Below, piece by piece: positions 10,408 through 57,396 of a stretch of 64,000 nt of DNA. The first letter of the stretch is position 1. Every line of letters begins with the position of its first letter. Source of the DNA: an uncultured Nitrospiraceae bacterium (lineage in GTDB: Bacteria > Nitrospirota > Thermodesulfovibrionia > Thermodesulfovibrionales > Dissulfurispiraceae); assembly GCA_963727805.1 (NCBI GenBank), contig CAVSHF010000005.1, forward strand, positions 384,001-448,000, in the 5' to 3' direction. The notes below the pieces were generated by a model. That model did no database searches. It worked only from the letters and a program-made list of their open reading frames with translations, and had not been told where the DNA came from. The position numbers were made by a program, and so were the translations under genes.

Positions 10408-11604
10408 TCATCGGCATTGCTCCGGAGGATCGTTGCAGCGGCGGGGAGGCAGAATCTCAATTCGGCGCATCTTGCCTTTTTTGCAAACGGGGCAGGTGGT
10501 GACGTCAATGCCGCAGATCCTTAGCAGCTGTTCCTGCCAGGTCTCAGGCTTGTCCTGCTCTTTCATTACGGTGTTGTGACTGTCAAGAAGCTCGCGGCAT
10601 GCAGCAATGTTATCTCTACGTTTCCTGTTTGCCAGCAGGCCGAAGTGCCTTATCCGAACGTATCGATTCGGCAGTACATGCAGAAGGAATCTTCTGATGA
10701 ACTCATCGGCCTGCAGAGTCATCACCTTGTGCTTATCGTCATCTGCGTAATCACGCCATTTGAACGAGACCTTGCCGTTTTCGGCCTCGATTATACGATT
10801 GTTGCTGATGGCGATCCTGTGCGTATATCGGCCGAGATATTGCAGGACGCCGCCAACTCCGTCGAAGGGCGGTTTGCAGTAGACAACCCACTTCTTGTGA
10901 TAAAGCTTTCTTCTGAGCATCTCGAAGGTATGGGAATCGCCGAGATGACTTATTCCTCCGGGAAAGATAAGATCACCCGCTTCAAAGATCCTTTTCAGAT
11001 GATCGAGGAACTTTCCCCGGAACAACGCCGACATTACCCTGACCGGAATGAAGAAGCCTTTGCGGCAGGATACCCAACTGTCTCCGTCGCAAGACAGGCC
11101 GCCTCCGGTGACGACACAGTGGATATGGGGATGGTCCATCAGATTCTGCCCCCAGGTATGAAGGATGCTGATGAAGCCGATGCGGGCACCGAGATGCTTC
11201 TGGTCATTTGAGAGTTCGGTGAGAGTTTCGGAGACACAACGGAACAGCAGATCATACATGACCTTCTGATTCATTATGACAACCGGATTGAGTTCCGACG
11301 GGATAGTGAAAACTACATGGAAGTACTGGATGGGCAAAAGGTCCTGTTGTCTGGCCTCAATCCACTGTTCTTTTTTCAGGGTCTGGCATTTGGGACAGTG
11401 CCTGTTCCGGCAGGAGTTGTAGGATATCTCGACGTGGCCGCAATCCTCGCACTTGTCCCTATGGCCTCCGAGTGCTGCCGTCCTGCATATCTCCACGGCG
11501 TGCATGGCCCGCAGATGACGAAGAGGCAAGGAATGAGACTGCCGATAATCGGAGCCGTAGCGGCGTAAGATATCCGCCACCTCCACACCACGAGACTGGC
11601 GCAT
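10408..11604 (-). CDS. IS91-family (Y2/HUH) transposase with N-terminal zinc-binding domain
   Basis: CEDCGH...SCRNRHCPKC, HVVFT, HPHIH (HUH), YLGRY (Y2). Confidence 0.92.
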   Translation of the reverse strand: MRQSRGVEVADILRRYGSDYRQSHSLPLRHLRAMHAVEICRTAALGGHRDKCEDCGHVEISYNSCRNRHCPKCQTLKKEQWIEARQQDLLPIQYFHVVFTIPSELNPVVIMNQKVMYDLLFRCVSETLTELSNDQKHLGARIGFISILHTWGQNLMDHPHIHCVVTGGGLSCDGDSWVSCRKGFFIPVRVMSALFRGKFLDHLKRIFEAGDLIFPGGISHLGDSHTFEMLRRKLYHKKWVVYCKPPFDGVGGVLQYLGRYTHRIAISNNRIIEAENGKVSFKWRDYADDDKHKVMTLQADEFIRRFLLHVLPNRYVRIRHFGLLANRKRRDNIAACRELLDSHNTVMKEQDKPETWQEQLLRICGIDVTTCPVCKKGKMRRIEILPPRRCNDPPEQCR

Positions 11605-11625
11605 CTGGATTTACGGCTCAGAGTG

Positions 11626-12471
11626 CTACAGATATTTTTTAGTTGCTATGTCCAGCGGACTGACAACTTTTGCCAGATTCATCTTGCTGACATGAAGATA
11701 AACGGTCGTGGTCGTCGGTGACCTGTGCCCAAGAAGCAGTTGGACATGATGAAGACTAGTCCCCGCCTCGATAAGGTGTGTCGCAAAACTATGCCTCAGA
11801 GTATGCACGCAAGCATTCTTTGCGATGCCGGCGCGTTTCTTGGATTTTTGGAATATCTGGTAGATGGAGCTTATAGTGATATGGGTGTTGTCCTTCTCGC
11901 CTTCAAATAACCACTCCTCCGGGCGATATTCCCTCCAATACTGTCTTAAGCACTCAAGGGCAGTCTGCGATAAGATGGAGTAACGGTCCTTTGCCCCTTT
12001 TCCAAGACGGACATAAACCAGCATACTCTTGCTGTCGATATCTGTCACCTTCAGTCGCGCAGCTTCACTTATTCTCAACCCGGCAGAATAGGTGATCATC
12101 AGAAGCGCCTTGTGCTTGATGTTTTCAGTGACTGAGAAAATCGCCTGGACTTCGGACAAATCCAAAACGAGAGGCAGCTTCTTCTGGGCTTTCGGATATT
12201 GAATATTATTGACTACATCCGCACGATTCAGGGTCGTATTATAAAGGAACTTGATCCCGGCCACATAGGTTCTGTATGTCCCCCTCGTTAAACCCCTTTC
12301 TTCCATAAGATGAACCAGATACTGCTTCACTTCCTCTGTACTCAGTTCTTCAGGAGACTTGCCGAAATAATTCTCAAGGTTACCGACTTCCCGGAGATAT
12401 TTCCTTTGGACACCAAGCGTAATGCCCTTCAACTGAAGATCCTGCAGCAACCGTTCTTTCAACGCGCTCAT
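11626..12471 (-). CDS. Tyrosine recombinase/integrase
   Basis: GLRISE, KGAKDR, HTLRHSFATH, LLGH, TTVY catalytic set. Start at ATG after GGAG. Confidence 0.92.
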   Translation of the reverse strand: MSALKERLLQDLQLKGITLGVQRKYLREVGNLENYFGKSPEELSTEEVKQYLVHLMEERGLTRGTYRTYVAGIKFLYNTTLNRADVVNNIQYPKAQKKLPLVLDLSEVQAIFSVTENIKHKALLMITYSAGLRISEAARLKVTDIDSKSMLVYVRLGKGAKDRYSILSQTALECLRQYWREYRPEEWLFEGEKDNTHITISSIYQIFQKSKKRAGIAKNACVHTLRHSFATHLIEAGTSLHHVQLLLGHRSPTTTTVYLHVSKMNLAKVVSPLDIATKKYL

Positions 12472-12810
12472 AATACAATCTCCTTTGAAACTGTTTTCTG
12501 CCAGCTCATGCCGGCAGCACAGCAAAGAGAGATTGTAAAAAGACTTCGATGGTTCAACAAAGAAATGTGATCAGGCAAAAGTGGCTATTCGAAAAAGATG
12601 GTACTACTACTGATAGGCCCTTGCTAATCGAATCCACCGCGCAGCGGTTTAGTCCTACTAAATATAATCGAGGTTGCACCTAACACAGTGAGAGGCTTTG
12701 TTTCAGTCGGAAATACTCAAATTTATTCCATTTTGCTTTAATGCTTATTCTAGCACTCCCAATCTGAGGCGCCAGTATCAGATATTCAATGATTTCCGGA
12801 TTAATAAAAC

Positions 12811-14700
12811 CTAGCGCTGCTTCGTGCGGCCTTGCTTCTTTGCGTAGAGAGAGGTTTTCGTTTTTTCAAGCGTCTGACTGGTTTGTCTCCTCACACGCCC
12901 CCGTTCGCTGCCTCCGCCGGCAAACAGCATTCCAGCCATCTTTTCTTTTCCCAGCTCCCTGAGTGCCTCCAACACCTTTTTGCGTTCATTAAGCTGGTTC
13001 CACAGCAGCAATGCCTTCTGCAAACCTTTTTCACGATCACTACGCGGGACATACACCTCTTTTCCGCTCTCGGGATTGATGCCAGTGTGGAACATACAGG
13101 TCGACAGAGTCCCAGGTGTAGGAGTAAAATCCTGAACCTGCTCAACCGTAAGCCCTAGCTTCTTTAAAGACAGCGCCAGTTCTAGCATGTCGGCCAGCGT
13201 ACAGCCGGGATGTCCCGAGATCAGGTATGGCACAACCTGCTGCCTCTTGCCGATACGGTCATTCTCATCGCGGAATTTCCCAAGAAAGTTTTCAAAGGCT
13301 TTTCTACCTGGTTTGTGCATTAGCGCCGTGACATGCTCAACAAGATGCTCAGGAGCTATCTTGAGCATACCGCTGACGTGATGCGACACCAGCTCACTGA
13401 AATATGCCGACTGACACTCCATTAGATCGTATCGTACCCCTGACGATACCGCCACATGTTTAACGCCGCTGTGGCTGCGAGCCTTGCGTAACAATGAAAC
13501 CGCACGCTTGTCATCCGTTTTGAGATTCTTGCAGATCTGCGGGAAGATGCAACTTTGCTTCCTGCATGATCTCTCAGCATCACGATTGCCGCACGAGAGG
13601 CCGTACATATTGGCAGTGGGCCCGCCGATGTCGCTGATGCTGCCACGGAACCATGACTTGCGGGTAAGCGCCCCGATTTCGTTTAGCACTGAGTTCTCAC
13701 TGCGAGACTGTATCGTTTTGCCCTGATGCGTGCCGATGGAGCAAAAAGAACAACCACCGAAACAGCCACGATGGCTGGTAATGGAGGTCTTGATCTGCTC
13801 CCACGCCGGGATCAAATCATGATACGAAGGGTGCGGCGCCTTCTCAAACGGCAAAGCGTAGACAGCGTCCATTTCTGATTCGGTAAGCGGCAGCGCCGGC
13901 GGCATGCAGACTAGCATGCGGGCACCATGGCGTTGCACAATAGTTCGGGCGCAATGAGGGTTCTGTTCAAGACTTGCGAGGCGGAAGGCCTCGGCAAACT
14001 TCGTTTTGTCTGCGACCACCTCTTCGAATGAAGGGATTTCAAGGATGCTGCTTTCCTCTCTATCAGAAAGCGCAATTGATCGAATATCACGGCTGATATA
14101 GGCCGTTCCGCGTACATTTCGGATGTTTGTCAGAGACTCACCTATCTGCATCCGTCTCGCCACTTCCAAAAGCGGCCGTTCCGCCATGCCGTAAATCAAC
14201 AGATCAGCCTTAGAGTCGAAGAGTATCGACCGCCGGACCTTATCTTCAGTGAAATCATAGTGTGCAAAACGGCGCAATGAGGCCTCTATGCCGCCGATGA
14301 TAACGGGCACATCGTGCCAGGCTTCCTTCAGGCGAGTGGTGTAGATAAGAGTAGCGCGATTGGGCCGTGCCCCATGTACGTTGCCCGGCGTATAGGCATC
14401 GTCGCGGCGCAGTTTGCGGGCTGCTGTGTAATGAGAAACCATTGAGTCCATTGCGCCGGCCGAGACGGCGAAAAACAGTCTGGGCTTTCCGAGTGCTCTG
14501 AATGGATTATGGGAACGCCAATCAGGTTGCGCAATAATCCCGATCCGGTACCCATGATTCTCCAACCAGCGCGCTAAAAGCGGCACGCCGAAAGAGGGGT
14601 GGTCGATATATGCATCGCCGCTGACGAAAATAACATCTAGCTCGTTCCATCCGCGGCTACGAGCCTGCTCTAAGGTCATGGGAAGAAAAGACACAGTCAT
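12811..14700 (-). CDS. YgiQ (UPF0313) family radical SAM protein
   Basis: [30 protein letters not shown] (CxxxCxxC), [20 protein letters not shown]. Confidence 0.92.
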
Positions 14701-15400: not shown

Positions 15401-15408
15401 GCTTGGAG

Positions 15409-16605
15409 ATGAGCAAGGTATTTGTAGGCATCGATGCGGCAAAAGAGTACTCGACTGCCCAGGGCATTGATAGTAACGAAAAGAAGCTTTTTTACTTAAG
15501 GTTCTCAATGGACTCAGCAGGGTTTACAGAGCTTCGGGCTGCGCTTAAGGGCTGCACTGAGAACATGGATGATATTGCTGTAGCAATGGAGTCCACCGGC
15601 TGTTATCATATCAACCTCTTTTCCTTTCTATGCGCGGAGGGATTTCGTTGTGCGGTAGTCAATCCGCTTCTGATATCCAGATTTGTTCAGGGATCATTGA
15701 GGAAGACCAAGACAGATAAGAAGGATGCTATGACCATAGCGCAGTTTCTTCTGAGCAATGAAAAGAAGCTTTGCGCGGTAACTGCGTCCCAGGATGCACA
15801 GGACTTGAGGGATCTGGCCAGGGAGCGGGAGTCTCAGTCATGGATGATCGCATCAATGAAGAATGACCTCAAACGGTTACTGCAGATCACTTTCCCTGAG
15901 TTTGAGACACTACGCAAGAATATTTACACGGAGACGATGCTGAACTTTCTGAGACAGTACCCCTCCGCCAGATTAGTTCGCGAGGCAAAGAGGAGAGATA
16001 TCGACAAAGCTCTCATCTGTCCCGGGGAGAAGCGCAAGAGAGTGCAGATTAGTGCCGACGATCTTATTGCTGCGGCAAAGCGCTCGGTGGGCTCAGCCGG
16101 TAGAGCAAAGGAGCTTATTGTCTCTGAGAAGGCAACCACGATCCTGTATCTTCAGGAAAAGTGCGAGAAGATTACCGAGGCATTGGTAGAAGCGTGTCAG
16201 GCAATGCGGATCGAAGATCTTGAGATCATTAAAACTCTCGATGGAGTAAAAAACATAACTGGATGCAGCTTTTTGGCGGAGATCGGAGAGTTGTCCAACT
16301 TCAAATCATATAAGAGTTTGATTGCTTTCATGGGGCTTGATCCATCTACACACCAGTCAGGGAATCATGTGGGGCCAAGTAAAATATCAAAACGAGGAAA
16401 TCGTCATCTGAGGCGCGTCGTCCATATAATGACACTTTGTGCAGTGAGGTCTGACAATATATTCAGACAATATTATCTCAGAAGGAAGGCTGAGGGATTG
16501 CCTCCGATGAAAGCATTAATGGCGACCTCTCACAAGCTAATAAGAGTGATCTTTTCTATGCTTACACACAGAATGCCGTTTAAAAAGGAGGTGGCTGCTG
16601 TATAG
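15409..16605 (+). CDS. IS110 transposase/recombinase
   Basis: GID / MESTG / KTDKKDA (DEDD) and HQSG...SKRGN motifs. Confidence 0.93.
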   Translation: MSKVFVGIDAAKEYSTAQGIDSNEKKLFYLRFSMDSAGFTELRAALKGCTENMDDIAVAMESTGCYHINLFSFLCAEGFRCAVVNPLLISRFVQGSLRKTKTDKKDAMTIAQFLLSNEKKLCAVTASQDAQDLRDLARERESQSWMIASMKNDLKRLLQITFPEFETLRKNIYTETMLNFLRQYPSARLVREAKRRDIDKALICPGEKRKRVQISADDLIAAAKRSVGSAGRAKELIVSEKATTILYLQEKCEKITEALVEACQAMRIEDLEIIKTLDGVKNITGCSFLAEIGELSNFKSYKSLIAFMGLDPSTHQSGNHVGPSKISKRGNRHLRRVVHIMTLCAVRSDNIFRQYYLRRKAEGLPPMKALMATSHKLIRVIFSMLTHRMPFKKEVAAV

Positions 16606-34279: not shown

Positions 34280-34660
34280 CGGTCAGCGGATAATATTGCT
34301 TTTTTGCCTACAGACTTAGCTACCAGAAAATCTCGAGCACTCGGCGAAAAAAAACAGCCAGAAAGAATCGCCCACAGCATTCGTTACTTAGCGGGTGTGA
34401 GTGCCGCCCCCTGTACATTTCAAGTTGAAACCGCGATAGTTCAAGGCAAGTTGTCTAGTGTTGACTCCTGTGAGTAGGACTAAACCGCTGCGCGGTGGAT
34501 TCGATTAGCAAGGGCCTATCAGTAGTAGTACCATCTTTTTCGAATAGCCACTTTTGCCTGATCACATTTCTTTGTTGAACCATCGAAGTCTTTTTACAAT
34601 CTCTCTTTGCTGTGCTGCCGGCATGAGCTGGCAGAAAACAGTTTCAAAGGAGATTGTATT

Positions 34661-35506
34661 ATGAGCGCGTTGAAAGAACGGTTGCTGCAGGATCTTCAGT
34701 TGAAGGGCATTACGCTTGGTGTCCAAAGGAAATATCTCCGGGAAGTCGGTAACCTTGAGAATTATTTCGGCAAGTCTCCTGAAGAACTGAGTACAGAGGA
34801 AGTGAAGCAGTATCTGGTTCATCTTATGGAAGAAAGGGGTTTAACGAGGGGGACATACAGAACCTATGTGGCCGGGATCAAGTTCCTTTATAATACGACC
34901 CTGAATCGTGCGGATGTAGTCAATAATATTCAATATCCGAAAGCCCAGAAGAAGCTGCCTCTCGTTTTGGATTTGTCCGAAGTCCAGGCGATTTTCTCAG
35001 TCACTGAAAACATCAAGCACAAGGCGCTTCTGATGATCACCTATTCTGCCGGGTTGAGAATAAGTGAAGCTGCGCGACTGAAGGTGACAGATATCGACAG
35101 CAAGAGTATGCTGGTTTATGTCCGTCTTGGAAAAGGGGCAAAGGACCGTTACTCCATCTTATCGCAGACTGCCCTTGAGTGCTTAAGACAGTATTGGAGG
35201 GAATATCGCCCGGAGGAGTGGTTATTTGAAGGCGAGAAGGACAACACCCATATCACTATAAGCTCCATCTACCAGATATTCCAAAAATCCAAGAAACGCG
35301 CCGGCATCGCAAAGAATGCTTGCGTGCATACTCTGAGGCATAGTTTTGCGACACACCTTATCGAGGCGGGGACTAGTCTTCATCATGTCCAACTGCTTCT
35401 TGGGCACAGGTCACCGACGACCACGACCGTTTATCTTCATGTCAGCAAGATGAATCTGGCAAAAGTTGTCAGTCCGCTGGACATAGCAACTAAAAAATAT
35501 CTGTAG
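34661..35506 (+). CDS. Tyrosine recombinase/integrase
   Basis: Protein identical to 11626-12471. Confidence 0.92.
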   Translation: MSALKERLLQDLQLKGITLGVQRKYLREVGNLENYFGKSPEELSTEEVKQYLVHLMEERGLTRGTYRTYVAGIKFLYNTTLNRADVVNNIQYPKAQKKLPLVLDLSEVQAIFSVTENIKHKALLMITYSAGLRISEAARLKVTDIDSKSMLVYVRLGKGAKDRYSILSQTALECLRQYWREYRPEEWLFEGEKDNTHITISSIYQIFQKSKKRAGIAKNACVHTLRHSFATHLIEAGTSLHHVQLLLGHRSPTTTTVYLHVSKMNLAKVVSPLDIATKKYL

Positions 35507-35527
35507 CACTCTGAGCCGTAAATCCAG

Positions 35528-36724
35528 ATGCGCCAGTCTCGTGGTGTGGAGGTGGCGGATATCTTACGCCGCTACGGCTCCGATTATCGGCAGTCTCATT
35601 CCTTGCCTCTTCGTCATCTGCGGGCCATGCACGCCGTGGAGATATGCAGGACGGCAGCACTCGGAGGCCATAGGGACAAGTGCGAGGATTGCGGCCACGT
35701 CGAGATATCCTACAACTCCTGCCGGAACAGGCACTGTCCCAAATGCCAGACCCTGAAAAAAGAACAGTGGATTGAGGCCAGACAACAGGACCTTTTGCCC
35801 ATCCAGTACTTCCATGTAGTTTTCACTATCCCGTCGGAACTCAATCCGGTTGTCATAATGAATCAGAAGGTCATGTATGATCTGCTGTTCCGTTGTGTCT
35901 CCGAAACTCTCACCGAACTCTCAAATGACCAGAAGCATCTCGGTGCCCGCATCGGCTTCATCAGCATCCTTCATACCTGGGGGCAGAATCTGATGGACCA
36001 TCCCCATATCCACTGTGTCGTCACCGGAGGCGGCCTGTCTTGCGACGGAGACAGTTGGGTATCCTGCCGCAAAGGCTTCTTCATTCCGGTCAGGGTAATG
36101 TCGGCGTTGTTCCGGGGAAAGTTCCTCGATCATCTGAAAAGGATCTTTGAAGCGGGTGATCTTATCTTTCCCGGAGGAATAAGTCATCTCGGCGATTCCC
36201 ATACCTTCGAGATGCTCAGAAGAAAGCTTTATCACAAGAAGTGGGTTGTCTACTGCAAACCGCCCTTCGACGGAGTTGGCGGCGTCCTGCAATATCTCGG
36301 CCGATATACGCACAGGATCGCCATCAGCAACAATCGTATAATCGAGGCCGAAAACGGCAAGGTCTCGTTCAAATGGCGTGATTACGCAGATGACGATAAG
36401 CACAAGGTGATGACTCTGCAGGCCGATGAGTTCATCAGAAGATTCCTTCTGCATGTACTGCCGAATCGATACGTTCGGATAAGGCACTTCGGCCTGCTGG
36501 CAAACAGGAAACGTAGAGATAACATTGCTGCATGCCGCGAGCTTCTTGACAGTCACAACACCGTAATGAAAGAGCAGGACAAGCCTGAGACCTGGCAGGA
36601 ACAGCTGCTAAGGATCTGCGGCATTGACGTCACCACCTGCCCCGTTTGCAAAAAAGGCAAGATGCGCCGAATTGAGATTCTGCCTCCCCGCCGCTGCAAC
36701 GATCCTCCGGAGCAATGCCGATGA
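35528..36724 (+). CDS. IS91-family Y2/HUH transposase
   Basis: Protein identical to 10408-11604. Confidence 0.92.
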   Translation: MRQSRGVEVADILRRYGSDYRQSHSLPLRHLRAMHAVEICRTAALGGHRDKCEDCGHVEISYNSCRNRHCPKCQTLKKEQWIEARQQDLLPIQYFHVVFTIPSELNPVVIMNQKVMYDLLFRCVSETLTELSNDQKHLGARIGFISILHTWGQNLMDHPHIHCVVTGGGLSCDGDSWVSCRKGFFIPVRVMSALFRGKFLDHLKRIFEAGDLIFPGGISHLGDSHTFEMLRRKLYHKKWVVYCKPPFDGVGGVLQYLGRYTHRIAISNNRIIEAENGKVSFKWRDYADDDKHKVMTLQADEFIRRFLLHVLPNRYVRIRHFGLLANRKRRDNIAACRELLDSHNTVMKEQDKPETWQEQLLRICGIDVTTCPVCKKGKMRRIEILPPRRCNDPPEQCR

Positions 36725-37364
36725 AAACCGTGGTCGTTTCAAAAATCGCCTCAATATCGCCCCGCGAAAAAAACATCTCTTTTCGCAACACGGTCTTGTT
36801 GTCCGAAAACGCCACTTTCGGCCCTTGCACATCATCGCAAAGGTCAAACAGGGGCATTAAAGACGCTGCCTATCAGCCTTGTTCAGCAAGACTTGCTCCT
36901 ATATATCCTAAAAGATGCCACTGCCGATAGTATAAGGAAGGATAATCTTCGATTGAATTGACATATCCGCACAGCGGCTTAGTCCTTCACACGTCAATCC
37001 GCAACTTCGCAGCGGATTGACGCTTATTCGCACCTAATGTTAACAAGCCCACTGGTTCCTTTAGAAACTTGTACTGGGAATCATCAACCGGAAGAAGTCG
37101 CCCGGACTAAATATTTCTTGGTGTTATTGAGAATTGATCACTGATCAATTCCGTTTGAAACAAAGCATCTTCACCGTGTCAGCGGGTGTCTGTCAGCGGC
37201 CGCTATGATTTCATTGCAACATATTTTACTACCGAAAGCCTTTGCAGAGTGCCCCGCGGCTTGCCGCGTGGGATGAATGCATGCCTTGCCTAGAGGGTTA
37301 TAAGGGAGACAGGGAGTCTCCCTTATCCGCTAAGGCCCTTGCGTAGTGTGGTATAACATATGGT

Positions 37365-37793
37365 ATGGCACTCAAAAGGGCGAGTCATGTGGTCTACGAC
37401 ACGACATACCACCTGGTATGGTGTCCGAAACGACGCAAGACAATATTTCAGGATGCTGAACTTAGGCAACGAGCGGAACAGCTCTTTCGTGAAATCAGCG
37501 ACGAGTATGAATTTGAGATACAGGAGATGGAAGTCGGAGTAGACCACGTTCATATACTGATGTCGTTTCATCCGAAGTATTCAATTGGGCAAGTTGTTAG
37601 GGCACTGAAAAGTATAAGCGCAAGGGAGCTGTTTCGTGAGTTCCCTCGAATCAAGCAACGATTGTGGAGCGGGCAGTTGTGGGAGGATAGATATTTCGCC
37701 CGAACTGTCGGAGACCGTATGACTCGGCAAATTGTCGAAAAGTATATAAGGCATCATCGTCAAGATGAGCAAGGGCCTGCGCAGCTCTTTTGA
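37365..37793 (+). CDS. tnpA: IS200/IS605 Y1 transposase
   Basis: YHLVWCPKRR, DHVH (HUH), LKSISAR, LWEDRYFARTVG, KYI. Confidence 0.92.
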   Translation: MALKRASHVVYDTTYHLVWCPKRRKTIFQDAELRQRAEQLFREISDEYEFEIQEMEVGVDHVHILMSFHPKYSIGQVVRALKSISARELFREFPRIKQRLWSGQLWEDRYFARTVGDRMTRQIVEKYIRHHRQDEQGPAQLF

Positions 37794-37820
37794 GCTGCGC
37801 TCAAGATGCCCCGCGGCTTG

Positions 37821-39503
37821 CAGGCTGTCCGACAATTATCGAAATTAGAGACAAATGACGGATGCCTCGCCATCCTGAAAACATAACGGGGCTATCTGCT
37901 TTATACATAGTATCTCCAGCAAAAGCTTCCTTGGCGTATGGCAGTAGTTGCCCTCTTTCGGAGGCTTTCCTCTTCCCTTCAGGCATTCCCATATCTTTTT
38001 CAGATTTACTGCCGTACAGGCAAGGTTAAATTCCGACCTTACCGAATTAATTCCTCTCGTCAGAAATGTTCGCAATCCTTTGTTCTCCTTGATATCGCCG
38101 ATCACAGGTTCAACAATCTGTTGTCTAAGCTTATATATATATCTTGCTGCAGGCGTTTTCATTTTTTCAGTCATCGCATTGCAGTGAACTTCGTGAGGGA
38201 ACACCTTCAGAGAGCGTATGCCGTCCTTCTGTTTGGTACACAGTCGCTGATGCTCACATCCCAAGCATCTCTGACCACGATAGACTCTCACCATCTTGTC
38301 CCTCTGTCTGTCAAAATGTTCGCCCAAGAATGTTAGCGGGTGATCAGCAGGACAAATATACTCATCCCTTTGTTTATTGTATGTAAAGTTCTTCTTGTCG
38401 TATGGGTTGTTTGCCCGCGTCCCACTATTGTCAGGCATGTATGCATCTATCTTCCTGTCCGATAGAAATGCAATGTTCTCACCGCTAAAATATCCAGAAT
38501 CAAAACTCCAAATAATACTATCAGCAATTCCGCCAAGATTCTCTGTGGTTTGTATAACCTGAGGTTGCAACTGGCTGACATCTGCAGCATTCTGCCCCAC
38601 GTCACTAGCCAAAATGAACCCACCCTTATCCACTGTCACCTGAGGATTATAAGAAAGCTCTATCCTGCCTTTCTTATTTTTCATAAAACGACTATCAGGA
38701 TCTGTCGTGCTTACCTGCTTTAGCCCTTCCTCATTAACTTTGTCTTGAGCTCCTTGAAGACCTTCTCTGAGTCGACCTATAAAAACATGCCCTTCTTCTT
38801 TAGCCCTCTTAACATAGTACTGTGCAGCTTTCTGAACAAGTTTTTTGCCCTGCCGGGACAGTTGGTCGCTACCCCGTAGTTCACCGAACTGCCGATCCTC
38901 ACTCTCATCAATCTCTGCCCACTCCTGAAGCTCACCATCGACAAAGCTTCTCAGAACCGCCAACTCCTCTTTTGTTAATACTCGCCTGTTTGATGCATTT
39001 GCCTTCACTTTGGTTCCATCTGTCGACAGATGCGACAAATCCAACAATCCTTCCTCTTTGGCAAAACTAACTGTGTGCTTGAAGACTTCCTTTAGTAGAT
39101 CAGGGTTGTTCTTTCTGAAATCGCTGATAGTCCTGAAGTCAGGAGTCAGCTTCTCCGCCAAATATATATACACCACGTTCTCTCTGGCATTGCGTGCCAG
39201 TCGACGAGATGAGCGCACCCTGTCCAGAACTCCCATGATCAGCAACTTCACCAGCATTTTTGGATGATATGCCGGATGTCCGGCACCTGAATAGCGGATA
39301 TCGAAGCAACCATAATCCAGGGAGTCAACCAATCCTTCAATGAGAAAACAAATATGATCTTCGGGTATCATATCTTCTAAACTCGGCGGCAGTAGCCAGG
39401 ATTGCCCTCCATACGACTCAATGTATGCCATCGGGTGTACTCCTTGATATCGTTCTTAAATATATTCTACCACCGGATAACTTGATAATTGTCGGACAGC
39501 CTG
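37821..39503 (-). mobile_element. IS1182-family element
   Basis: 20-bp terminal inverted repeats CAGGCTGTCCGACAATTATC. 4-bp TSD CTTG at 37817-37820 and 39504-39507. Confidence 0.92.
37845..39431 (-). CDS. IS1182-family DDE transposase
   Basis: YHPKML, PDFRTISDFRK, DGTKVKANAS, TTDPDSRFM, DSGY, VEPV. Confidence 0.93.
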   Translation of the reverse strand: MAYIESYGGQSWLLPPSLEDMIPEDHICFLIEGLVDSLDYGCFDIRYSGAGHPAYHPKMLVKLLIMGVLDRVRSSRRLARNARENVVYIYLAEKLTPDFRTISDFRKNNPDLLKEVFKHTVSFAKEEGLLDLSHLSTDGTKVKANASNRRVLTKEELAVLRSFVDGELQEWAEIDESEDRQFGELRGSDQLSRQGKKLVQKAAQYYVKRAKEEGHVFIGRLREGLQGAQDKVNEEGLKQVSTTDPDSRFMKNKKGRIELSYNPQVTVDKGGFILASDVGQNAADVSQLQPQVIQTTENLGGIADSIIWSFDSGYFSGENIAFLSDRKIDAYMPDNSGTRANNPYDKKNFTYNKQRDEYICPADHPLTFLGEHFDRQRDKMVRVYRGQRCLGCEHQRLCTKQKDGIRSLKVFPHEVHCNAMTEKMKTPAARYIYKLRQQIVEPVIGDIKENKGLRTFLTRGINSVRSEFNLACTAVNLKKIWECLKGRGKPPKEGNYCHTPRKLLLEILCIKQIAPLCFQDGEASVICL

Positions 39504-49222: not shown

Positions 49223-49731
49223 GCTGTATCACCTCAACTCATCCGGTTCTAGAACTGTGAGCATATCTACTCAATTAACCGCGTATTATTATATCTTCTT
49301 TGTCTCCGATTGCACTAGAAATAGTTCTTTGACTTGCATGTTTCATCGGAATCAGTTCACCAAATTATATATGGATTCATTGGCAGATTCTAGTTCGAAT
49401 AAATTTATATATGATACAATTGGAATCAAGCTCTCACGGTATACCAAATTGTCTATCTTTTTCGTTATCGCATCGCCTGGTGTGTCCTAATCTGAGCCAC
49501 TAACTCTCATCACCGAAAAGTCACTTTGTGGCGGCGTTTCTTAGGTCAAACGACCCATGATGAGTACGGGATAAAACACACAAACCATCTTTAATACATT
49601 TTTTCGGAAACAAACACTTTCGCCGAAATGGCCGCACTGGAGGTTATCAGGAGCACCAATTGTTTTTGGAAAAGAGCGCCGGTATTGACTTCGGGACGAA
49701 AGCTTGTGTAACGAGCCGTATCTCTGTGGTA

Positions 49732-49836
49732 ATGACTTCGACATGTATCCGAGCTCGCCAATTTATTGACTATGGTGTCAGATTTTTTTGGAAATAAATG
49801 GTGGCTCTCGTAGCAGATGATGAAGGGTACGTGCAG
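49732..49836. repeat. 105-bp direct repeat, copy 1
   Basis: Matches 53930-54034 with 2 mismatches. Confidence 0.88.
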
Positions 49837-50022
49837 TAGGACTAAACCGCTGCGCGGTGGATTCGATTAGCAAGGGCCTATCAGTAGTAGTACCATCTTT
49901 TTCGAATAGCCACTTTTGCCTGATCACATTTCTTTGTTGAACCATCGAAGTCTTTTTACAATCTCTCTTTGCTGTGCTGCCGGCATGAGCTGGCAGAAAA
50001 CAGTTTCAAAGGAGATTGTATT

Positions 50023-50868
50023 ATGAGCGCGTTGAAAGAACGGTTGCTGCAGGATCTTCAGTTGAAGGGCATTACGCTTGGTGTCCAAAGGAAATATCTC
50101 CGGGAAGTCGGTAACCTTGAGAATTATTTCGGCAAGTCTCCTGAAGAACTGAGTACAGAGGAAGTGAAGCAGTATCTGGTTCATCTTATGGAAGAAAGGG
50201 GTTTAACGAGGGGGACATACAGAACCTATGTGGCCGGGATCAAGTTCCTTTATAATACGACCCTGAATCGTGCGGATGTAGTCAATAATATTCAATATCC
50301 GAAAGCCCAGAAGAAGCTGCCTCTCGTTTTGGATTTGTCCGAAGTCCAGGCGATTTTCTCAGTCACTGAAAACATCAAGCACAAGGCGCTTCTGATGATC
50401 ACCTATTCTGCCGGGTTGAGAATAAGTGAAGCTGCGCGACTGAAGGTGACAGATATCGACAGCAAGAGTATGCTGGTTTATGTCCGTCTTGGAAAAGGGG
50501 CAAAGGACCGTTACTCCATCTTATCGCAGACTGCCCTTGAGTGCTTAAGACAGTATTGGAGGGAATATCGCCCGGAGGAGTGGTTATTTGAAGGCGAGAA
50601 GGACAACACCCATATCACTATAAGCTCCATCTACCAGATATTCCAAAAATCCAAGAAACGCGCCGGCATCGCAAAGAATGCTTGCGTGCATACTCTGAGG
50701 CATAGTTTTGCGACACACCTTATCGAGGCGGGGACTAGTCTTCATCATGTCCAACTGCTTCTTGGGCACAGGTCACCGACGACCACGACCGTTTATCTTC
50801 ATGTCAGCAAGATGAATCTGGCAAAAGTTGTCAGTCCGCTGGACATAGCAACTAAAAAATATCTGTAG
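50023..50868 (+). CDS. Tyrosine recombinase/integrase
   Basis: Protein identical to the other copies. Confidence 0.92.
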   Translation: MSALKERLLQDLQLKGITLGVQRKYLREVGNLENYFGKSPEELSTEEVKQYLVHLMEERGLTRGTYRTYVAGIKFLYNTTLNRADVVNNIQYPKAQKKLPLVLDLSEVQAIFSVTENIKHKALLMITYSAGLRISEAARLKVTDIDSKSMLVYVRLGKGAKDRYSILSQTALECLRQYWREYRPEEWLFEGEKDNTHITISSIYQIFQKSKKRAGIAKNACVHTLRHSFATHLIEAGTSLHHVQLLLGHRSPTTTTVYLHVSKMNLAKVVSPLDIATKKYL

Positions 50869-50889
50869 CACTCTGAGCCGTAAATCCAG

Positions 50890-52086
50890 ATGCGCCAGTC
50901 TCGTGGTGTGGAGGTGGCGGATATCTTACGCCGCTACGGCTCCGATTATCGGCAGTCTCATTCCTTGCCTCTTCGTCATCTGCGGGCCATGCACGCCGTG
51001 GAGATATGCAGGACGGCAGCACTCGGAGGCCATAGGGACAAGTGCGAGGATTGCGGCCACGTCGAGATATCCTACAACTCCTGCCGGAACAGGCACTGTC
51101 CCAAATGCCAGACCCTGAAAAAAGAACAGTGGATTGAGGCCAGACAACAGGACCTTTTGCCCATCCAGTACTTCCATGTAGTTTTCACTATCCCGTCGGA
51201 ACTCAATCCGGTTGTCATAATGAATCAGAAGGTCATGTATGATCTGCTGTTCCGTTGTGTCTCCGAAACTCTCACCGAACTCTCAAATGACCAGAAGCAT
51301 CTCGGTGCCCGCATCGGCTTCATCAGCATCCTTCATACCTGGGGGCAGAATCTGATGGACCATCCCCATATCCACTGTGTCGTCACCGGAGGCGGCCTGT
51401 CTTGCGACGGAGACAGTTGGGTATCCTGCCGCAAAGGCTTCTTCATTCCGGTCAGGGTAATGTCGGCGTTGTTCCGGGGAAAGTTCCTCGATCATCTGAA
51501 AAGGATCTTTGAAGCGGGTGATCTTATCTTTCCCGGAGGAATAAGTCATCTCGGCGATTCCCATACCTTCGAGATGCTCAGAAGAAAGCTTTATCACAAG
51601 AAGTGGGTTGTCTACTGCAAACCGCCCTTCGACGGAGTTGGCGGCGTCCTGCAATATCTCGGCCGATATACGCACAGGATCGCCATCAGCAACAATCGTA
51701 TAATCGAGGCCGAAAACGGCAAGGTCTCGTTCAAATGGCGTGATTACGCAGATGACGATAAGCACAAGGTGATGACTCTGCAGGCCGATGAGTTCATCAG
51801 AAGATTCCTTCTGCATGTACTGCCGAATCGATACGTTCGGATAAGGCACTTCGGCCTGCTGGCAAACAGGAAACGTAGAGATAACATTGCTGCATGCCGC
51901 GAGCTTCTTGACAGTCACAACACCGTAATGAAAGAGCAGGACAAGCCTGAGACCTGGCAGGAACAGCTGCTAAGGATCTGCGGCATTGACGTCACCACCT
52001 GCCCCGTTTGCAAAAAAGGCAAGATGCGCCGAATTGAGATTCTGCCTCCCCGCCGCTGCAACGATCCTCCGGAGCAATGCCGATGA
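50890..52086 (+). CDS. IS91-family Y2/HUH transposase
   Basis: Protein identical to the other copies. Confidence 0.92.
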   Translation: MRQSRGVEVADILRRYGSDYRQSHSLPLRHLRAMHAVEICRTAALGGHRDKCEDCGHVEISYNSCRNRHCPKCQTLKKEQWIEARQQDLLPIQYFHVVFTIPSELNPVVIMNQKVMYDLLFRCVSETLTELSNDQKHLGARIGFISILHTWGQNLMDHPHIHCVVTGGGLSCDGDSWVSCRKGFFIPVRVMSALFRGKFLDHLKRIFEAGDLIFPGGISHLGDSHTFEMLRRKLYHKKWVVYCKPPFDGVGGVLQYLGRYTHRIAISNNRIIEAENGKVSFKWRDYADDDKHKVMTLQADEFIRRFLLHVLPNRYVRIRHFGLLANRKRRDNIAACRELLDSHNTVMKEQDKPETWQEQLLRICGIDVTTCPVCKKGKMRRIEILPPRRCNDPPEQCR

Positions 52087-52444
52087 AAACCGTGGTCGTT
52101 TCAAAAATCGCCTCAATATCGCCCCGCGAAAAAAACATCTCTTTTCGCAACACGGTCTTGTTGTCCGAAAACGCCACTTTCGGCCCTTGCACATCATCGC
52201 AAAGGTCAAACAGGGGCATTAAAGACGCTGCCTATCAGCCTTGTTCAGCAAGACTTGCTCCTATATATCCTAAAAGATGCCACTGCCGATAGTATAAGGA
52301 AGGATAATCTTCGATTGAATTGACATATCCGCACAGCGGCTTAGTCCTTCACACGTCAATCCGCAACTTCGCAGCGGATTGACGCTTATTCGTACCCAAG
52401 AATTTGATTTCAACAGTTATTTTCCGAAATCATCATTTTTGGTG

Positions 52445-53896
52445 AGATAGCCGTGGTGTTGACTTTCAGTCAACTATACAGCAGCCACCTCCTTTTTAAA
52501 CGGGATTCTGTTTGTAAGCATAGAGAAGATAACCCTGATCAGCTTGTGAGTGGTGGCCATTAATGCCTTCATCTTAGGCAATCCTTCAGCGATTCGTCTA
52601 AGGTAATATTCTCTGAATATATTGTCAGATCTTATTGTACAGAGTGTAATAAGATGGCTGATGCGCCTCATATGACGATTCCCTCGTTTTGATATTTTAC
52701 TTGGCCCCACATGCTTCCCTGACTGATGAGTCGATGGATCGAGCCCCATGTAAGCTATCAAACTCTTATATGATTTGAAGTTGGACAGCTCTCCCATCTC
52801 AGCCAGAAAGCTGCTGCCAAGAATGTCTTTCACCCCATCGAGAGTCTTCATTATCTCAAGATCTTCGATCCGTGTTGCCTCACACGCATCCACCAATGCC
52901 TCGGTAATCTTCTCACACTTCTCCTGAAGATACAGGATCGTGGTTGCCTTCTCAGAGACAATGAGCTCCTTCGCTTTACCAGCTGAGCCCACCGAGCGCT
53001 TTGCAGCAGCAATAAGATCGTCGGCACTAATCTGGACCCTCTTGCGCTTCTCCCCAGGGCAGATGAGCGCTTTGTCGATATCTTTCCTCTTGGCCTCCCG
53101 AATTAATCTGGCTGAAGGATACTGCCTAATAAAGTTCAGCATCGTATCAGTGTAAATATTCTTGCGGAGTGTCTCAAACTCAGGGAAAGTGCTCTGCAGC
53201 AGCCGTTTGAGGTCATTCTTAAGTGTTGCGATCAGCCATGACTGAGACTCTCTTTCCCTGGCCAGATCCCTGAGATCCTGTGCATCCTGGGACTCGGTCA
53301 CGGAGTAAAGCTTCTTTTCATTGTTCAGAAGAAACTGCGCTATGGTCATCGCATCCTTCTTATCTGTCTTGGTCTTTCTCAATGACCCCTGAACAAACTT
53401 GGATATTAGAAGCGGATTGACTACCGCACAACGAAGTCCCTCCGCACATAGGAAGGAAAAGAGGTTGATATGATAACAGCCGGTGGACTCCATCGTAACA
53501 GCAATATCATCCAGGTTCACAGCGCATCTTTTAATCGCAGTCCGAAGCTCTGCGAACCCCGCTGAGTCCATTGAGAACCTTAAATAAAAAAGCTTCTTTT
53601 CGTCACTGTCGATGCTTTGGGCAGTCGAGTGCTCTTTTGACACATCGATGCCAATGAATGCTTTGCTCATTTCCAAGCGCCTCCCACATAGGATCTTAGG
53701 CAGGATGCCTCCCAACCATATCTCCATGTTTACAAGAGCTCTTAGCCCGATCAACTTATCATGGTTTTTGGGAGGCAGGGAACTGACTGAAAAAAGGATT
53801 CAATGACCCTGTAGCAAACCACGTTCTCCTGCCTCTTTATGAACGGTTAACAACCGTCCATATTATCGTTATACCATATTTGATGTGTAGGAGTAG
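52445..53896 (-). mobile_element. IS110-family element B (diverged paralog of A), with 5' non-coding end at 53671-53896
   Basis: Ends homologous to 15184-16634; CT at both ends. Confidence 0.85.
52474..53670 (-). CDS. IS110 transposase/recombinase
   Basis: GIDVSK, MESTG, KTDKKDA, HQSG. Confidence 0.93.
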   Translation of the reverse strand: MSKAFIGIDVSKEHSTAQSIDSDEKKLFYLRFSMDSAGFAELRTAIKRCAVNLDDIAVTMESTGCYHINLFSFLCAEGLRCAVVNPLLISKFVQGSLRKTKTDKKDAMTIAQFLLNNEKKLYSVTESQDAQDLRDLARERESQSWLIATLKNDLKRLLQSTFPEFETLRKNIYTDTMLNFIRQYPSARLIREAKRKDIDKALICPGEKRKRVQISADDLIAAAKRSVGSAGKAKELIVSEKATTILYLQEKCEKITEALVDACEATRIEDLEIMKTLDGVKDILGSSFLAEMGELSNFKSYKSLIAYMGLDPSTHQSGKHVGPSKISKRGNRHMRRISHLITLCTIRSDNIFREYYLRRIAEGLPKMKALMATTHKLIRVIFSMLTNRIPFKKEVAAV

Positions 53897-53929
53897 CACC
53901 AATTCAGCGGCCTCGATATTGCTGCCGCG

Positions 53930-54034
53930 ATGACTTCGACATGTATCCGAGCTCGCCAATTTATTGGCTATGGTGTCAGATTTTTTTGGAAATAAATGGT
54001 GGCTCTCGTAGCAGATGATGAAGAGTACGTGCAG
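53930..54034. repeat. 105-bp direct repeat, copy 2
   Basis: Matches 49732-49836. Confidence 0.88.
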
Positions 54035-54351
54035 AAAGCAATAGTTTGCTTGATCTATTTTTCTGTCTGTCCGGAGAGCATATTCTCACAGACCCTGGTT
54101 TATTATTGTCAAGTACTTTCCCTTCCCCTTCTATGGGAACTCATTGGATATCGCATTATATGTTCCTTATGCTTAATTGGTGTAGCACCTTGCCCAACAC
54201 TGGTGATTTGAGGGTCTCTACAGAGCCCTAACCTTGCTTCATTGAGACTAAGATGCAAGCGGGGAGTTATGCATGCTACGAATGAGGGTCGGCTCAGCCG
54301 CCTTTGGGTCTGTGATGATAATCTCCCCGCCCTATGCGCCCAAAGTATGAC

Positions 54352-55608
54352 TTATGCAGCCTCCTGTAACAATGTTATTGAGAAGTCTTTTCTGTACACG
54401 CTTTGATCACGCACGATGGCGAATATGATACCAAGAAGTTTCCTTGCAACGGCGATCAAAGCTTTGATCTTGGGCATTCCACGCTGGAGGTACTGTTGAT
54501 ATGGATGATGCATTATTCCTCCTCGGCGCACTGCATTGAGTGCGGCAAAGAACAAGAGTTTACGCAGAAGTGGCCGGCCTCGCTTGGATATGTGCCGTTT
54601 CCCCTGATGTTTACCCGAACTGATCTCATACAGGTCCAGGCCAGCGAGCTTCAGAATCTCTGAGAGGGTTCCAAACTTACGAAAATCACCAACCTCACCA
54701 ATAAGACCGGCAGCTGTGACCTCCTTGATACCCTTGATCGACAGGATCGAATCACTGTATGGGATCTGTTTCAGGTAATAGGCCATCTCTTTTTCCAGAC
54801 TCTCGGTAAAGGACTCAGCTGCATCCATGATAACAAGAAGCTCTCGCATCTCACGGATAATGCTTGCCATGCCTTCGGTCACGCCGACAGATGTTTGAGC
54901 GGCCTCAAAGAGGGCCTTGGCACGGTCTTCCTTAAGTTTTCCACGGCTTATCTTTCTGAGTGTTTTAGTCAAATTATCAAGACCATACTCGACAATATCC
55001 TTTGGTGCCGGACACAGCCTAAGTAGATATCGGGAGCTTAAGATTTTCATATCCTTCATGACATGCAAGAATTCCGGGAATACGATCGCAATCAGACTCT
55101 GGAGTTGATTCACTGAAGCTACAAAACGCTCATTGCTCCTTTCCCTGGCCTGCGTGAGCCTCCGAAGCTCTGCAGCCGGACCTTCCGGTATCACAACTGT
55201 CAGAGCGTGGCCAAGAGCCATGATATCGGCAATGACCTTTGGATCTTTTTGATCGGTCTTGTGAGGCGAATTGCCCTGCAAATCCTTCCCCCTCTTGGTG
55301 TGCATAGGGTTAACCTGTACCATATGCACTCCTCTTGCGCGCATGAAATGCACCAAAGGCTCTGCGAACGAACCAGTAGATTCGTATCCAAACACAATGT
55401 TATCAAGATTATAGAGATTCTTGGCATGCAACACTTGGTTCCAGAACTCTTGAAAACCACCGCCGTTGTTCCAGAAAGCAAAAGGCTTCACATCGGTTCC
55501 GTCCGGACAGCGCCAGTACCCAAAATGTTTGTCTTTGCTCATATCAACACTCACGATCAGGGTTTGTCCGTTGACTACTTTAATCTTTTTTGTTTTAATC
55601 TTATTCAT
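54352..55608 (-). CDS. IS110 transposase (element C, approx. 54090-55720)
   Basis: SVDMSK, YESTG, KTDQKD, ISSG...SKRGR. Element ends are approximate. Confidence 0.9.
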   Translation of the reverse strand: MNKIKTKKIKVVNGQTLIVSVDMSKDKHFGYWRCPDGTDVKPFAFWNNGGGFQEFWNQVLHAKNLYNLDNIVFGYESTGSFAEPLVHFMRARGVHMVQVNPMHTKRGKDLQGNSPHKTDQKDPKVIADIMALGHALTVVIPEGPAAELRRLTQARERSNERFVASVNQLQSLIAIVFPEFLHVMKDMKILSSRYLLRLCPAPKDIVEYGLDNLTKTLRKISRGKLKEDRAKALFEAAQTSVGVTEGMASIIREMRELLVIMDAAESFTESLEKEMAYYLKQIPYSDSILSIKGIKEVTAAGLIGEVGDFRKFGTLSEILKLAGLDLYEISSGKHQGKRHISKRGRPLLRKLLFFAALNAVRRGGIMHHPYQQYLQRGMPKIKALIAVARKLLGIIFAIVRDQSVYRKDFSITLLQEAA

Positions 55609-56049
55609 GGCTATACTCCTTTCTTTGGTTCGGATTTAACCAACTCGCCAATTGGCTCCAAATCAAGAAAGAGTATAGCCTTTTTAAATGGCCATCACTA
55701 CCCTTCTTAAATATAGCAAGCTACGAACCCACGTCTTCAAATACATGACCAAGGTAATGCAGCGTCTTCATTAATGAAGGCTGTCTGCTCATAGCGCCCA
55801 CAACCCGGCGTATCCGGGACTGCGGTTTAAAGAAACATGCAGCTAGCTGCGATTTTGTGGCAATCTACAGTACTGCGCCGGCAAAGACCGATAGCTTCAA
55901 TGGTGCGGATCTGCCCGTCTCATAGCGTGGTCCTGGGTCACGTCTGCGACATTGGTGAGTCCGGCTATGCCAGACATCCCGTTTGAGAGATTGATCAGAG
56001 TGACGTACCCGTACCGGCGTAGCATTCTGGTGAGATAACGGAGGGAACT

Positions 56050-57396
56050 GTGGGAAGAAGACATCGTGCTTTGACATTGAAGCATCCAAATGCTGCTGGT
56101 ATCGATGTAGGTGCAGAAAGCCATTTTGTGGCAGTACCGCCAGATCGGGACGATGAACCGGTACGGGAGTTCAGGAGTTTTACTGAAGATTTACACCGCA
56201 TAGCGCAGTGGTTGTCTAACTGTGGAGTGGACATAGTGGCGATGGAGTCCACGGGGGTCTACTGGATATCGTTGTATGAGTTCTTAGAGTCAAAAGGATT
56301 CACGGTATATCTGGTGAATGCGCGACATGTCAAAAATGTTTCTGGTCGCAAATCGGATGTATTGGATTGTCAATGGATACAGCAGTTGATGAGTTATGGG
56401 CTTTTGTCGGGTGCCTTTAGGCCTGCAGATGAGATATGCGCATTGAGAGCAGTGTCACGGCAAAGGGAGATGCTTCTTAAGTATCAATCTCAGCATGTAC
56501 AGCACATGCAGAAGGCTCTTGCGCAGATGAATATTCAGATAGTCAATGTTATTGCAGATATCGTAGGGGAGACTGGACAAAAGATAGTGAGAGCAATAAT
56601 CGCTGGAGAGCGTGACCCCTATAAGCTTGCAAGCCTGAGGAACTACCGAGTAAAAGCGAGCGAGGAAGAGATAGCAAAATCATTGCAAGGCAACTGGCGT
56701 CAAGAGCATTTGTTTGCACTTAAACAGGCCGTTGCATTATTTGATGCATACTCGGAGCAGCTTCGTCAGTGTGATTGCCAGCTCCAGAAGATGCTTCAGG
56801 AACTGAAGCGGTATGATGGAGAGCCTACATCTATATATAGTAAAGCGAGATCTCGCAAAAAGAACGAGCCTCAGTTTGATTTGAGGTCATATCTGGTAGG
56901 GATGTGCGGAGTGGATTTGACCCGCATTGATGGAATAGAGGTAACGACTGCGTTGAAAATAATGTCGGAGGTGGGTCCGGATCTGTCGCGGTTTCCATCC
57001 GTAAAGCACTTCACTTCATGGCTGGGTATATGTCCTGGCACTAAGATATCTGGTGGAAAGAAATTATCCGGGAAATCCAGAGCTGGCGCTAACCGTGCAG
57101 CTCAGGCGTTAAGATTAGCCGCTCATGCATTACGTGCGAGCAAGTCGGCATTGGGAGCCTACTATCGTCGTCTATGCTCCAGATTAGACAAAGCCAAAGC
57201 AATTACAGCTGCTGCACATAAATTGGCCCGACTAGTTTATACAATGCTTACAAGGGGAACAGAATATGTGGACAAGGGGCAGGAATACTACGAAGAACGT
57301 TATCGACAGCGTGTTGTCCATAACTTGAACAAAAAGGCTGCGGCTATGGGTTTCGTTCTTATGCCGGCTCCGGAGAAGGCCTGTGGAATGCCATGA
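56050..57396 (+). CDS. IS110 transposase (element D, approx. 55866-57419)
   Basis: AGIDVG, MESTGVYW, RKSDVLD, KISGG. About 180-bp 5' non-coding end. Confidence 0.92.
   Translation: MGRRHRALTLKHPNAAGIDVGAESHFVAVPPDRDDEPVREFRSFTEDLHRIAQWLSNCGVDIVAMESTGVYWISLYEFLESKGFTVYLVNARHVKNVSGRKSDVLDCQWIQQLMSYGLLSGAFRPADEICALRAVSRQREMLLKYQSQHVQHMQKALAQMNIQIVNVIADIVGETGQKIVRAIIAGERDPYKLASLRNYRVKASEEEIAKSLQGNWRQEHLFALKQAVALFDAYSEQLRQCDCQLQKMLQELKRYDGEPTSIYSKARSRKKNEPQFDLRSYLVGMCGVDLTRIDGIEVTTALKIMSEVGPDLSRFPSVKHFTSWLGICPGTKISGGKKLSGKSRAGANRAAQALRLAAHALRASKSALGAYYRRLCSRLDKAKAITAAAHKLARLVYTMLTRGTEYVDKGQEYYEERYRQRVVHNLNKKAAAMGFVLMPAPEKACGMP

Follow-up and report, generated by a model that had tools for sequence, protein, structure and literature searches.

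A two-gene IS91-family element with a predicted hairpin at its joined ends and palindromic insertion sites: indications of a two-enzyme route of transposition

The element and its two enzymes

The window analysed here, a stretch of 64,000 nucleotides from an uncultured Nitrospiraceae bacterium (assembly GCA_963727805.1, contig CAVSHF010000005.1, positions 384,001 to 448,000), carries three copies of a mobile element in which a tyrosine recombinase gene is followed by the gene of an IS91-family transposase. The copies lie at 10102–12659 on the minus strand and at 34473–37030 and 49835–52392 on the plus strand; each is 2558 bp long, as the initial annotation of this DNA had it, they are mutually identical, and every motif named in that annotation is found at its place. 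Coordinates below refer to the copy at 34473–37030 unless stated otherwise. In the whole genome there are eight near-identical copies, which vary at two positions only, 34473 and 34475. The left junction reads AG|TAGG in six of the eight, and not in every copy as had been annotated, the other two being GG|TAGG and AG|AAGG. Since position 34473 varies among the copies, the A present there is target DNA, and the element proper spans 34475–37030 with one G shared with the target. The element is a recently multiplied member of a catalogued IS91 subgroup, and its ends and insertion sites suggest that the two enzymes may divide the work of transposition between them.

The recombinase gene (34661–35506, plus strand; 281 aa; PF00589 and PF13495) encodes the catalytic residues R133, K158, H223, R226, H249 and Y258, and all six are conserved in 45–46 of 46 homologs; the comparison set comprised 46 distinct intact recombinase–transposase pairs, L058 and L059 being left out because of stops. 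The protein scores under the cut-offs of the TIGR02249 (158.9 bits against 265), XerC and XerD models. In alignment it has 89 residues from the catalytic Arg to the HxLRH box, against 130 in IntI1, and thus lacks the I2 insertion specific to IntI, an absence that had been noticed at the outset. The transposase gene (35528–36724, plus strand; 398 aa; PF14319 and PF04986) encodes an HUH/Y2 enzyme with zinc-binding cysteines, an HPHIH motif and the tyrosines Y256 and Y260, motifs conserved in 46/46 homologs, and its product reaches 473 bits with the NCBIfam IS91 model NF033538 (cut-off 125). Unlike the Rep–helicase fusion of the HLE2 elements, the proteins of this element have no helicase domain among their Pfam hits. 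No sigma-70 promoter was detected at the left end of the element.

Among the relatives, of which 80 loci were kept out of 198 found, the recombinase gene lies upstream of the transposase gene in 78, the remaining two loci being cut off by the contig start. The gene pair, its kinship with the integron integrases and the missing insertion are already in print (bioRxiv 10.1101/542381), and the initial annotation was right that such pairs are on record; where that work treats the recombinase of this IS91 subgroup, it places it in an integron-like subgroup, closest to the integron integrases. Extra recombinase genes occur just past the right end in the relatives L014 (4187–5774), L030 (4245–5655) and L057 (4185–6124), and L057 also has a second, divergent recombinase–transposase pair that faces the first.

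Predicted fold of the joined ends

The left end (34474–34495, plus strand, the terIS side), which carries an R'-like box and one arm of an outer stem, is an inverted repeat of the subterminal segment 36967–36988 (plus strand) with 3 mismatches in 22 positions, and this second arm ends in an R''-like box (36982–36988). It is followed on the same strand by an inner hairpin at 36992–37022, with a perfect 11-bp stem (arms 36992–37002 and 37012–37022), a 9-nt loop and L''/L'-like boxes, and then by the unpaired strand of a bulge together with the terminal G of the oriIS side (37023–37030, plus strand, sequence CTTATTCG). The crossover falls after this G, and right-hand contigs stop at 37030 in 4/4 sequencing runs. 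The imperfect inverted repeat of the ends and the perfect hairpin beside it had been described in the initial annotation and are both borne out. The right end alone folds with a z-score of −5.7, none of 200 shuffles being equally good. Joining the two ends in silico gives predicted folds of −34.8 kcal/mol for the bottom strand and −29.6 kcal/mol for the top strand, and the natural joined junction of a relative has a folding z-score of −8.4.

Both ends could be fixed by motifs in 54 of 88 loci, which gave 36 distinct end sets; L032 (indel), L043 (divergent end) and L049 (contig end) were left out of their alignment. Paired cells make up 383 of 468 in the outer stem and 321 of 324 in the inner stem, fractions that are inflated by the selection of ends through motifs and a best-pairing search, a selection which does not create compensatory swaps. 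Such compensatory changes are present at 5 of 13 outer-stem pairs and at 6 of 9 inner-stem pairs, and the covariation check proposed along with the original hairpin is in this sense passed. In the core, TTC/GAA, AAC/GTT and AAT/ATT replace one another across the relatives. When upstream and downstream sequence was searched without guidance for inverted repeats shared by the two, most of the complete loci gave this end pairing again; a phylum-wide pattern was too loose, and its 30 loci were used as control DNA only. The bottom strand forms the more stable fold in 32 of the 36 end sets, and the mismatches of the top strand are mostly C·A, equivalent to G·T pairs on the bottom strand. The length of the 7-nt bulge strand is conserved among the relatives, and the loop of the inner hairpin ranges in them from about 8 to 85 nt. 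Naming the acting enzyme from tree incongruence was tried and rejected, because the recombinase and transposase trees agree and the core swaps fall alike on both.

No such pairing of termini was found in the canonical IS91, IS1294 and IS801; matches scoring 37 in IS801 (the ori end of a neighbouring copy) and 27 in IS91 (an A-rich internal match) pair the termini in neither case. A distant two-gene element of Sinorhizobium does show the end pairing. The predicted hairpin has in common with integron attC sites the fold of the bottom strand, the R and L boxes and a terminal loop that varies, and exact RYYYAAC/GTTRRRY cores are present in relatives such as L055, L059 and L060, the corresponding core of this element being GTCCTTC/GTAGGAC. 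Its inner stem is free of bulges, extrahelical bases are absent, and the spacers measure 5 and 9 nt, against 5 and 6 nt in a real attC site. The attC-like character that had been attributed to the hairpin is retained for the layout and lost for the extrahelical bases and the 9-nt spacer, and these two features bring the predicted structure nearer to the sort of double-strand mimic formed by CTX phage than to attC.

Naturally joined ends were encountered in 12 loci of a single metagenome scan, mostly as tandem arrays. L126 contains two full elements in tandem with 95% identity, L133 a full element and then a mini (after the junction at 2801–2823), and L127 and L136 tandem gene-less minis of 256 bp; L053 is a further joined-end case. 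L132 consists of one contig with an exact 120-bp terminal repeat, the only such case. The search for a circle junction suggested in the initial annotation has in this way produced joined ends, mostly tandem ones, and no back-joint in the contigs of 4 of the 21 listed sequencing runs, a negative that is uninformative for rare forms, which contigs lose. As the neighbours in the arrays are not identical, the tandems point to successive insertion at a regenerated left junction rather than to read-through.

Gene-less minis of 253–276 bp with both ends stand in tandem in L127 (260–772), L136 (minus strand) and L133, and the L127 unit has a promoter-like match, TTGACA-N17-TATTAA, spotted by eye. At L128 (about 839–901) and L134 (about 351–451) the 7-nt bulge strand is present on both sides of the inner hairpin and both host flanks are joined via right-end-type junctions, the left join of L134 lying at the L box. 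This suggests that either box can be cut, or that an inversion took place.

Target site and crossover

The left half of the target of this copy (34459–34474, plus strand) is composed of an L box with T at 34466 (position −9), a 5-bp spacer (34469–34473) and the crossover G at 34474, and the right half (37031–37039, plus strand, host DNA) mirrors the L box. Site preferences were derived from 35 non-redundant insertions of the GAA clade for the left flanks and from 41 sites for the right flanks. The left flanks are strongly biased over positions −16 to −7, with T at −9 in 35/35 of the sites and in 19/19 held-out sites, against a background of 0.26; before the held-out count, L171, L173, L175, L184 and L186 were removed from a set of 19 loci as chance or relic matches. 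The right flanks mirror the bias of the left ones, with A at +2 in 38 of the 41, T at +4 in 22 and C at +5 in 21. A matrix trained on 23 sites from outside this genome has the consensus TGAGGATTAC-N5-G|AAATCAACA (11.9 bits) and a mirror correlation of 0.70 at the axis of the 5-bp spacer, other axes giving 0.40 or less. By its scores, every one of the 8 sites in this genome falls within the best 0.4% of genome positions, and 7 fall within the best 0.1%. When the window was scanned with the consensus, the excess was slight (8 against 3.4), and no use was made of it.

As deduced from these flanks, the target is a degenerate palindrome of about 25 bp, in which two boxes surround a 5-bp spacer and the crossover falls at the right edge; the very short target originally envisaged does not survive. 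Two inverted boxes, a 5-bp spacer and an exchange at the overlap edge are also the plan of attI-like simple sites, and the box-N5-G|TT arrangement recurs in the simple site of attI1. In the folded donor, the uncut strand fits the target matrix in register with +5.7 bits, as against −13 for a double-stranded junction. Guiding of the target by base pairing with the inner stem was rejected, since the target fails to change with the donor at −10, −8 and −7 and mostly keeps T at −10 where the donor has A. With the target not following the donor base by base, its reader is likely to be a protein. A second match to the consensus lies in host DNA at 34412–34436 (plus strand; 11.8 bits with the matrix from other genomes), 47 bp upstream of the crossover. 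Such matches occur 45–47 bp upstream at 8/8 sites here and at 11/46 elsewhere, against a background of 1, and may represent either an accessory binding site or a feature of the host repeat described below.

The position of the exchange can be read from one genome in which six copies all end in A, whereas five of their left junctions, three of them with a common flank, show G and the remaining one shows A. This pattern puts the exchange after the first core base, which is the integron position and lies one base off the rule of IS91, for which the source consulted gives a four-base target of the CTTG/GTTC type (PMC13181058). The base that follows the left G (34475 in this copy) is T in seven and A in one of the eight copies here, and it varies among T, A and G in 7 left ends of the genome G012 and among C, G and T in 5 of G097. 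It equals the right-hand base in 15 of the 35 insertions, with about 13 expected if the two were independent, and duplication of the +1 base was rejected on this count. Orthologous empty alleles were not found in 68 family genomes, and paralogs were used instead: the empty counterpart of this copy's site (C3:854198–854140), a second site with three paralogs, and the site of L001. In these the target itself supplies the base after the right G, and the flanks join with one shared G and nothing gained or lost, which confirms the lack of a target-site duplication noted initially. The collection of copies and empty alleles advised at that time has thus yielded eight copies and paralogous empty sites that define the join, and no orthologous allele.

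The base after the left G is foreign and is not that of the new target; the contigs of three of the four runs, two of them from another study, start at 34476, one base beyond the variable base 34475. We infer that this base comes from the right flank of the donor site. The simplest reading is that the excision cut lies further out than the integration cut and carries a base of the old flank along; on this reading excision and integration probably break different bonds, which is what two enzymes would do. No flank base would be moved by a recombinase that reverses its own exchange, whereas an HUH enzyme ending at GAAC/GGAC would move one. This tetranucleotide is found three bases into the left end in all listed ends, the motif being itself part of the end search.

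The host repeat just mentioned is about 65 bp long, has 64 matches in this genome (G000) and 0 in the reversed genome, and is built from the same box-N5-box site repeated directly at a distance of 46–47 bp; it stands between gene modules. It is mostly in one orientation per cluster and occurs at C5 19706–67120, C5 551835–567273 and C3 775486–807340, among others, and in the window at 12652–12720 and 49683–49738. With an unseeded model of the repeat, 3 of the 8 insertions fall at its 3' site, and only these. The targets and the repeat were also considered as attC-like hairpins, which was rejected for weak folding without strand bias (20/64). A 324-aa tyrosine recombinase is encoded between two of the repeats (G000:C5:27489–28460; in L223 at 12487–13461, minus strand); as the cognate enzyme of the repeat it could not be established, the repeat being present at 0/9 homolog loci in related genomes. 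Two elements with 80% transposase identity, in two genomes, are inserted at the same base of a homologous flank (the left flank of L001 and G000:C5:561687). The window is rich in other mobile genes (15403–16605, 37365–39431 and 52474–57396), among them four IS110-family transposases, one of the IS200-type Y1 class and one DDE transposase (DUF772).

A probable two-enzyme pathway and its known relatives

We consider it quite probable that the HUH transposase excises the element as a bottom-strand circle and that the element's own tyrosine recombinase integrates the folded junction by one strand exchange into the symmetrical double-stranded target. The two-enzyme pathway sketched in the initial annotation gains support from the symmetrical two-box target that matches the folded donor and from the one-base offset between excision and integration, the roles of the enzymes being those that we infer. 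By analogy with IS91, for which a bottom-strand circle is described as the functional intermediate (PMC13181058), the HUH enzyme would nick the bottom strand 1–2 bases out in the right flank and terminate just inside the left end, leaving the first base of the old flank in the circle. The junction would then fold into two stems, a predicted step that covariation backs, and offer the L box, a 5-nt spacer and the R box on its uncut strand, the bulge of the cut strand being longer by 4 nt. The geometry of the target suggests that the recombinase would pair this folded junction with a box-N5-box site of the host and swap bottom strands immediately past the G of the top strand, at the target's right box. 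As in integrons and CTX phage, replication would resolve the resulting junction and leave no duplication. The left junction is again a target, as the tandem stacks show, so that copies can accumulate like cassettes at attI. The longer bulge may take the place of I2 in blocking a second exchange.

Transposition by the HUH enzyme alone, which would use the hairpin for both excision and insertion and leave to the recombinase the resolution of tandems or co-integrates, appears unlikely. Its precedent is the HLE2 group, whose elements, in the account available, lack a recombinase and have short inverted repeats, the right one followed by a stem-loop (PMC11417382); at the target the bottom-strand sequence is NTNC, near the IS91 tetranucleotides, and tandems, which might need resolving, do exist. 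IS91-type targets, however, comprise four bases, in contrast to a palindrome of 25 bp whose box lies at a distance of 9 bp, the canonical members lack the end pairing, the crossover is displaced by one base from the IS91 position, and one enzyme following one rule fails to account for the shuttled base. An arrangement in which the recombinase only binds and unites the target and the folded donor, the strand being transferred by the HUH enzyme, has a decidedly low probability. It would explain the symmetry of the target and the match of the folded donor without any need for I2, and the second site 45–47 bp upstream would correspond to putative binding sites that stay uncut, but all six catalytic residues persist in 45–46 of 46 homologs, and the crossover coincides exactly with that edge of the 7-bp overlap at which tyrosine recombinases cleave the bottom strand. 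The cleavage polarity of tyrosine recombinases is well established and was used to place the bottom-strand cut at this edge. Just as improbable is an IntI-like recombinase responsible for both excision and integration, with the HUH enzyme only supplying single-stranded DNA or amplifying the circle, which suits the gene-cassette layout of the integrated element, its left junction that is again a target and the odd loci L128 and L134 where both boxes seem joinable, but would retain the left end's own base, which is in fact foreign and variable, and would require an outer stem that cannot form locally in the integrated element with its arms 2.5 kb apart.

Several observations weigh against the two-enzyme pathway. 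In addition to the inflation of the paired fractions by the selection of ends, the core changes reduce to two events on trees, and the core swaps, being alike on both enzyme trees, are not diagnostic of the enzyme. The L-box signal is weak in the GTT clade (18 sites). The right-end flank has no conserved tetranucleotide of the IS91 type, and the ori nick is thus not placed; the left ends of G012 include T although 0/8 of the assembled right flanks have it. The natural junctions are mostly tandems with no free circle among them, L132 could be a collapsed tandem, all 12 junctions read GAA, so the variable base is not displayed in any of them, and the contigs of the four runs add no back-joint within their limits. 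IntI is described as needing I2 to block a lethal second exchange (PMC7790495); this recombinase lacks I2, and the bulge would have to do the blocking. Finally, the HLE2 helitrons share the end layout and, as described in PMC11417382, do so without a recombinase.

A literature search that was thin on subscription papers and did not extend to supplements turned up no publication dealing with the hairpin, with the target or with what the recombinase does, which does not establish their absence from print. With somewhat less confidence than the division of roles itself, we think it likely that a hybrid pathway exists in which single-stranded excision by an HUH enzyme is coupled to integration of a folded donor by a tyrosine recombinase into attI-like palindromes, and in which autonomous elements and gene-less minis stack like cassettes. 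The sequence evidence gives the recombinase a precise and testable role: it specifies the fold of the donor, the target consensus and the crossover, and it supplies a one-base tracer by which excision and integration can be told apart. Confirmation would mean that a single pathway unites rolling-circle transposition with site-specific recombination and that DNA can move in a new way, by a division of labour between two enzymes. The pathway would also represent a living case of single-strand recombination by an integron-like enzyme without the I2 helix, and a candidate for the origin of integrons. It bears on the question of how integron integrases came to recombine single-stranded DNA, an ability currently tied to the I2 helix in the source consulted (PMC7790495). 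The two-gene 2.6-kb system, whose ends are present in 256-bp minis, could serve as a compact integration tool.

By several independent sequence tests the element behaves like a self-propelled integron cassette, and it falls outside attC sites and IntI integrases in the strict sense. With the IS91 family it shares a zinc-finger Y2 HUH transposase and the lack of target duplication; the GAAC/GGAC at its left end, the complement of the GTTC/GTCC tetranucleotides, is a putative terIS tetranucleotide. The family includes a subgroup with an upstream tyrosine recombinase, for example ISShvi3, which beside an attC is described as yielding a cassette structure (PMC9229058). Canonical IS91, IS801 and IS1294 differ in having no joined-end hairpin and a four-base target, in place of the palindrome of about 25 bp and the crossover displaced by one base. 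HLE2 elements (Helitron2/Helentron) resemble it in their Y2 HUH enzyme and in the end structures named above, but have a fused helicase, a T|T target where this element has G|NA, and, in the published description, no recombinase and no reported palindromic target (PMC11417382). Integrative elements of the strand-biased circularizing kind (SEs) likewise combine one-strand copy-out with integration by a tyrosine recombinase, but encode no HUH enzyme according to their description (PMC9345347). General background is provided by PMC10288648 and PMC7923331.

The likeness to the integron attC × attI reaction extends to the folded bottom-strand donor (attC is recombined as its bottom strand; PMC11023631) with its R and L boxes, its spacer of 5 nt on the side of R'' and its variable terminal loop, to the crossover after G, to the double-stranded box-N5-box target, to cassette-like stacking and to an integron-like recombinase. 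In contrast to integrons, the element has no I2 and no extrahelical bases, its L'–R' spacer is 9 instead of 6 nt, its core is GTA/GAA in its clade, and the recombinase travels inside the mobile unit beside an HUH enzyme, with no fixed platform. In CTX phage, as far as the account in PMC5357621 goes, folding of the single-stranded genome brings two inverted sites together as a mimic of double-stranded DNA, which is joined to the chromosome by a single exchange followed by replication, and the integrated form is unable to refold locally. CTX borrows the XerC/D of its host and uses dif only, whereas the present element encodes the recombinase itself and inserts at many degenerate sites.

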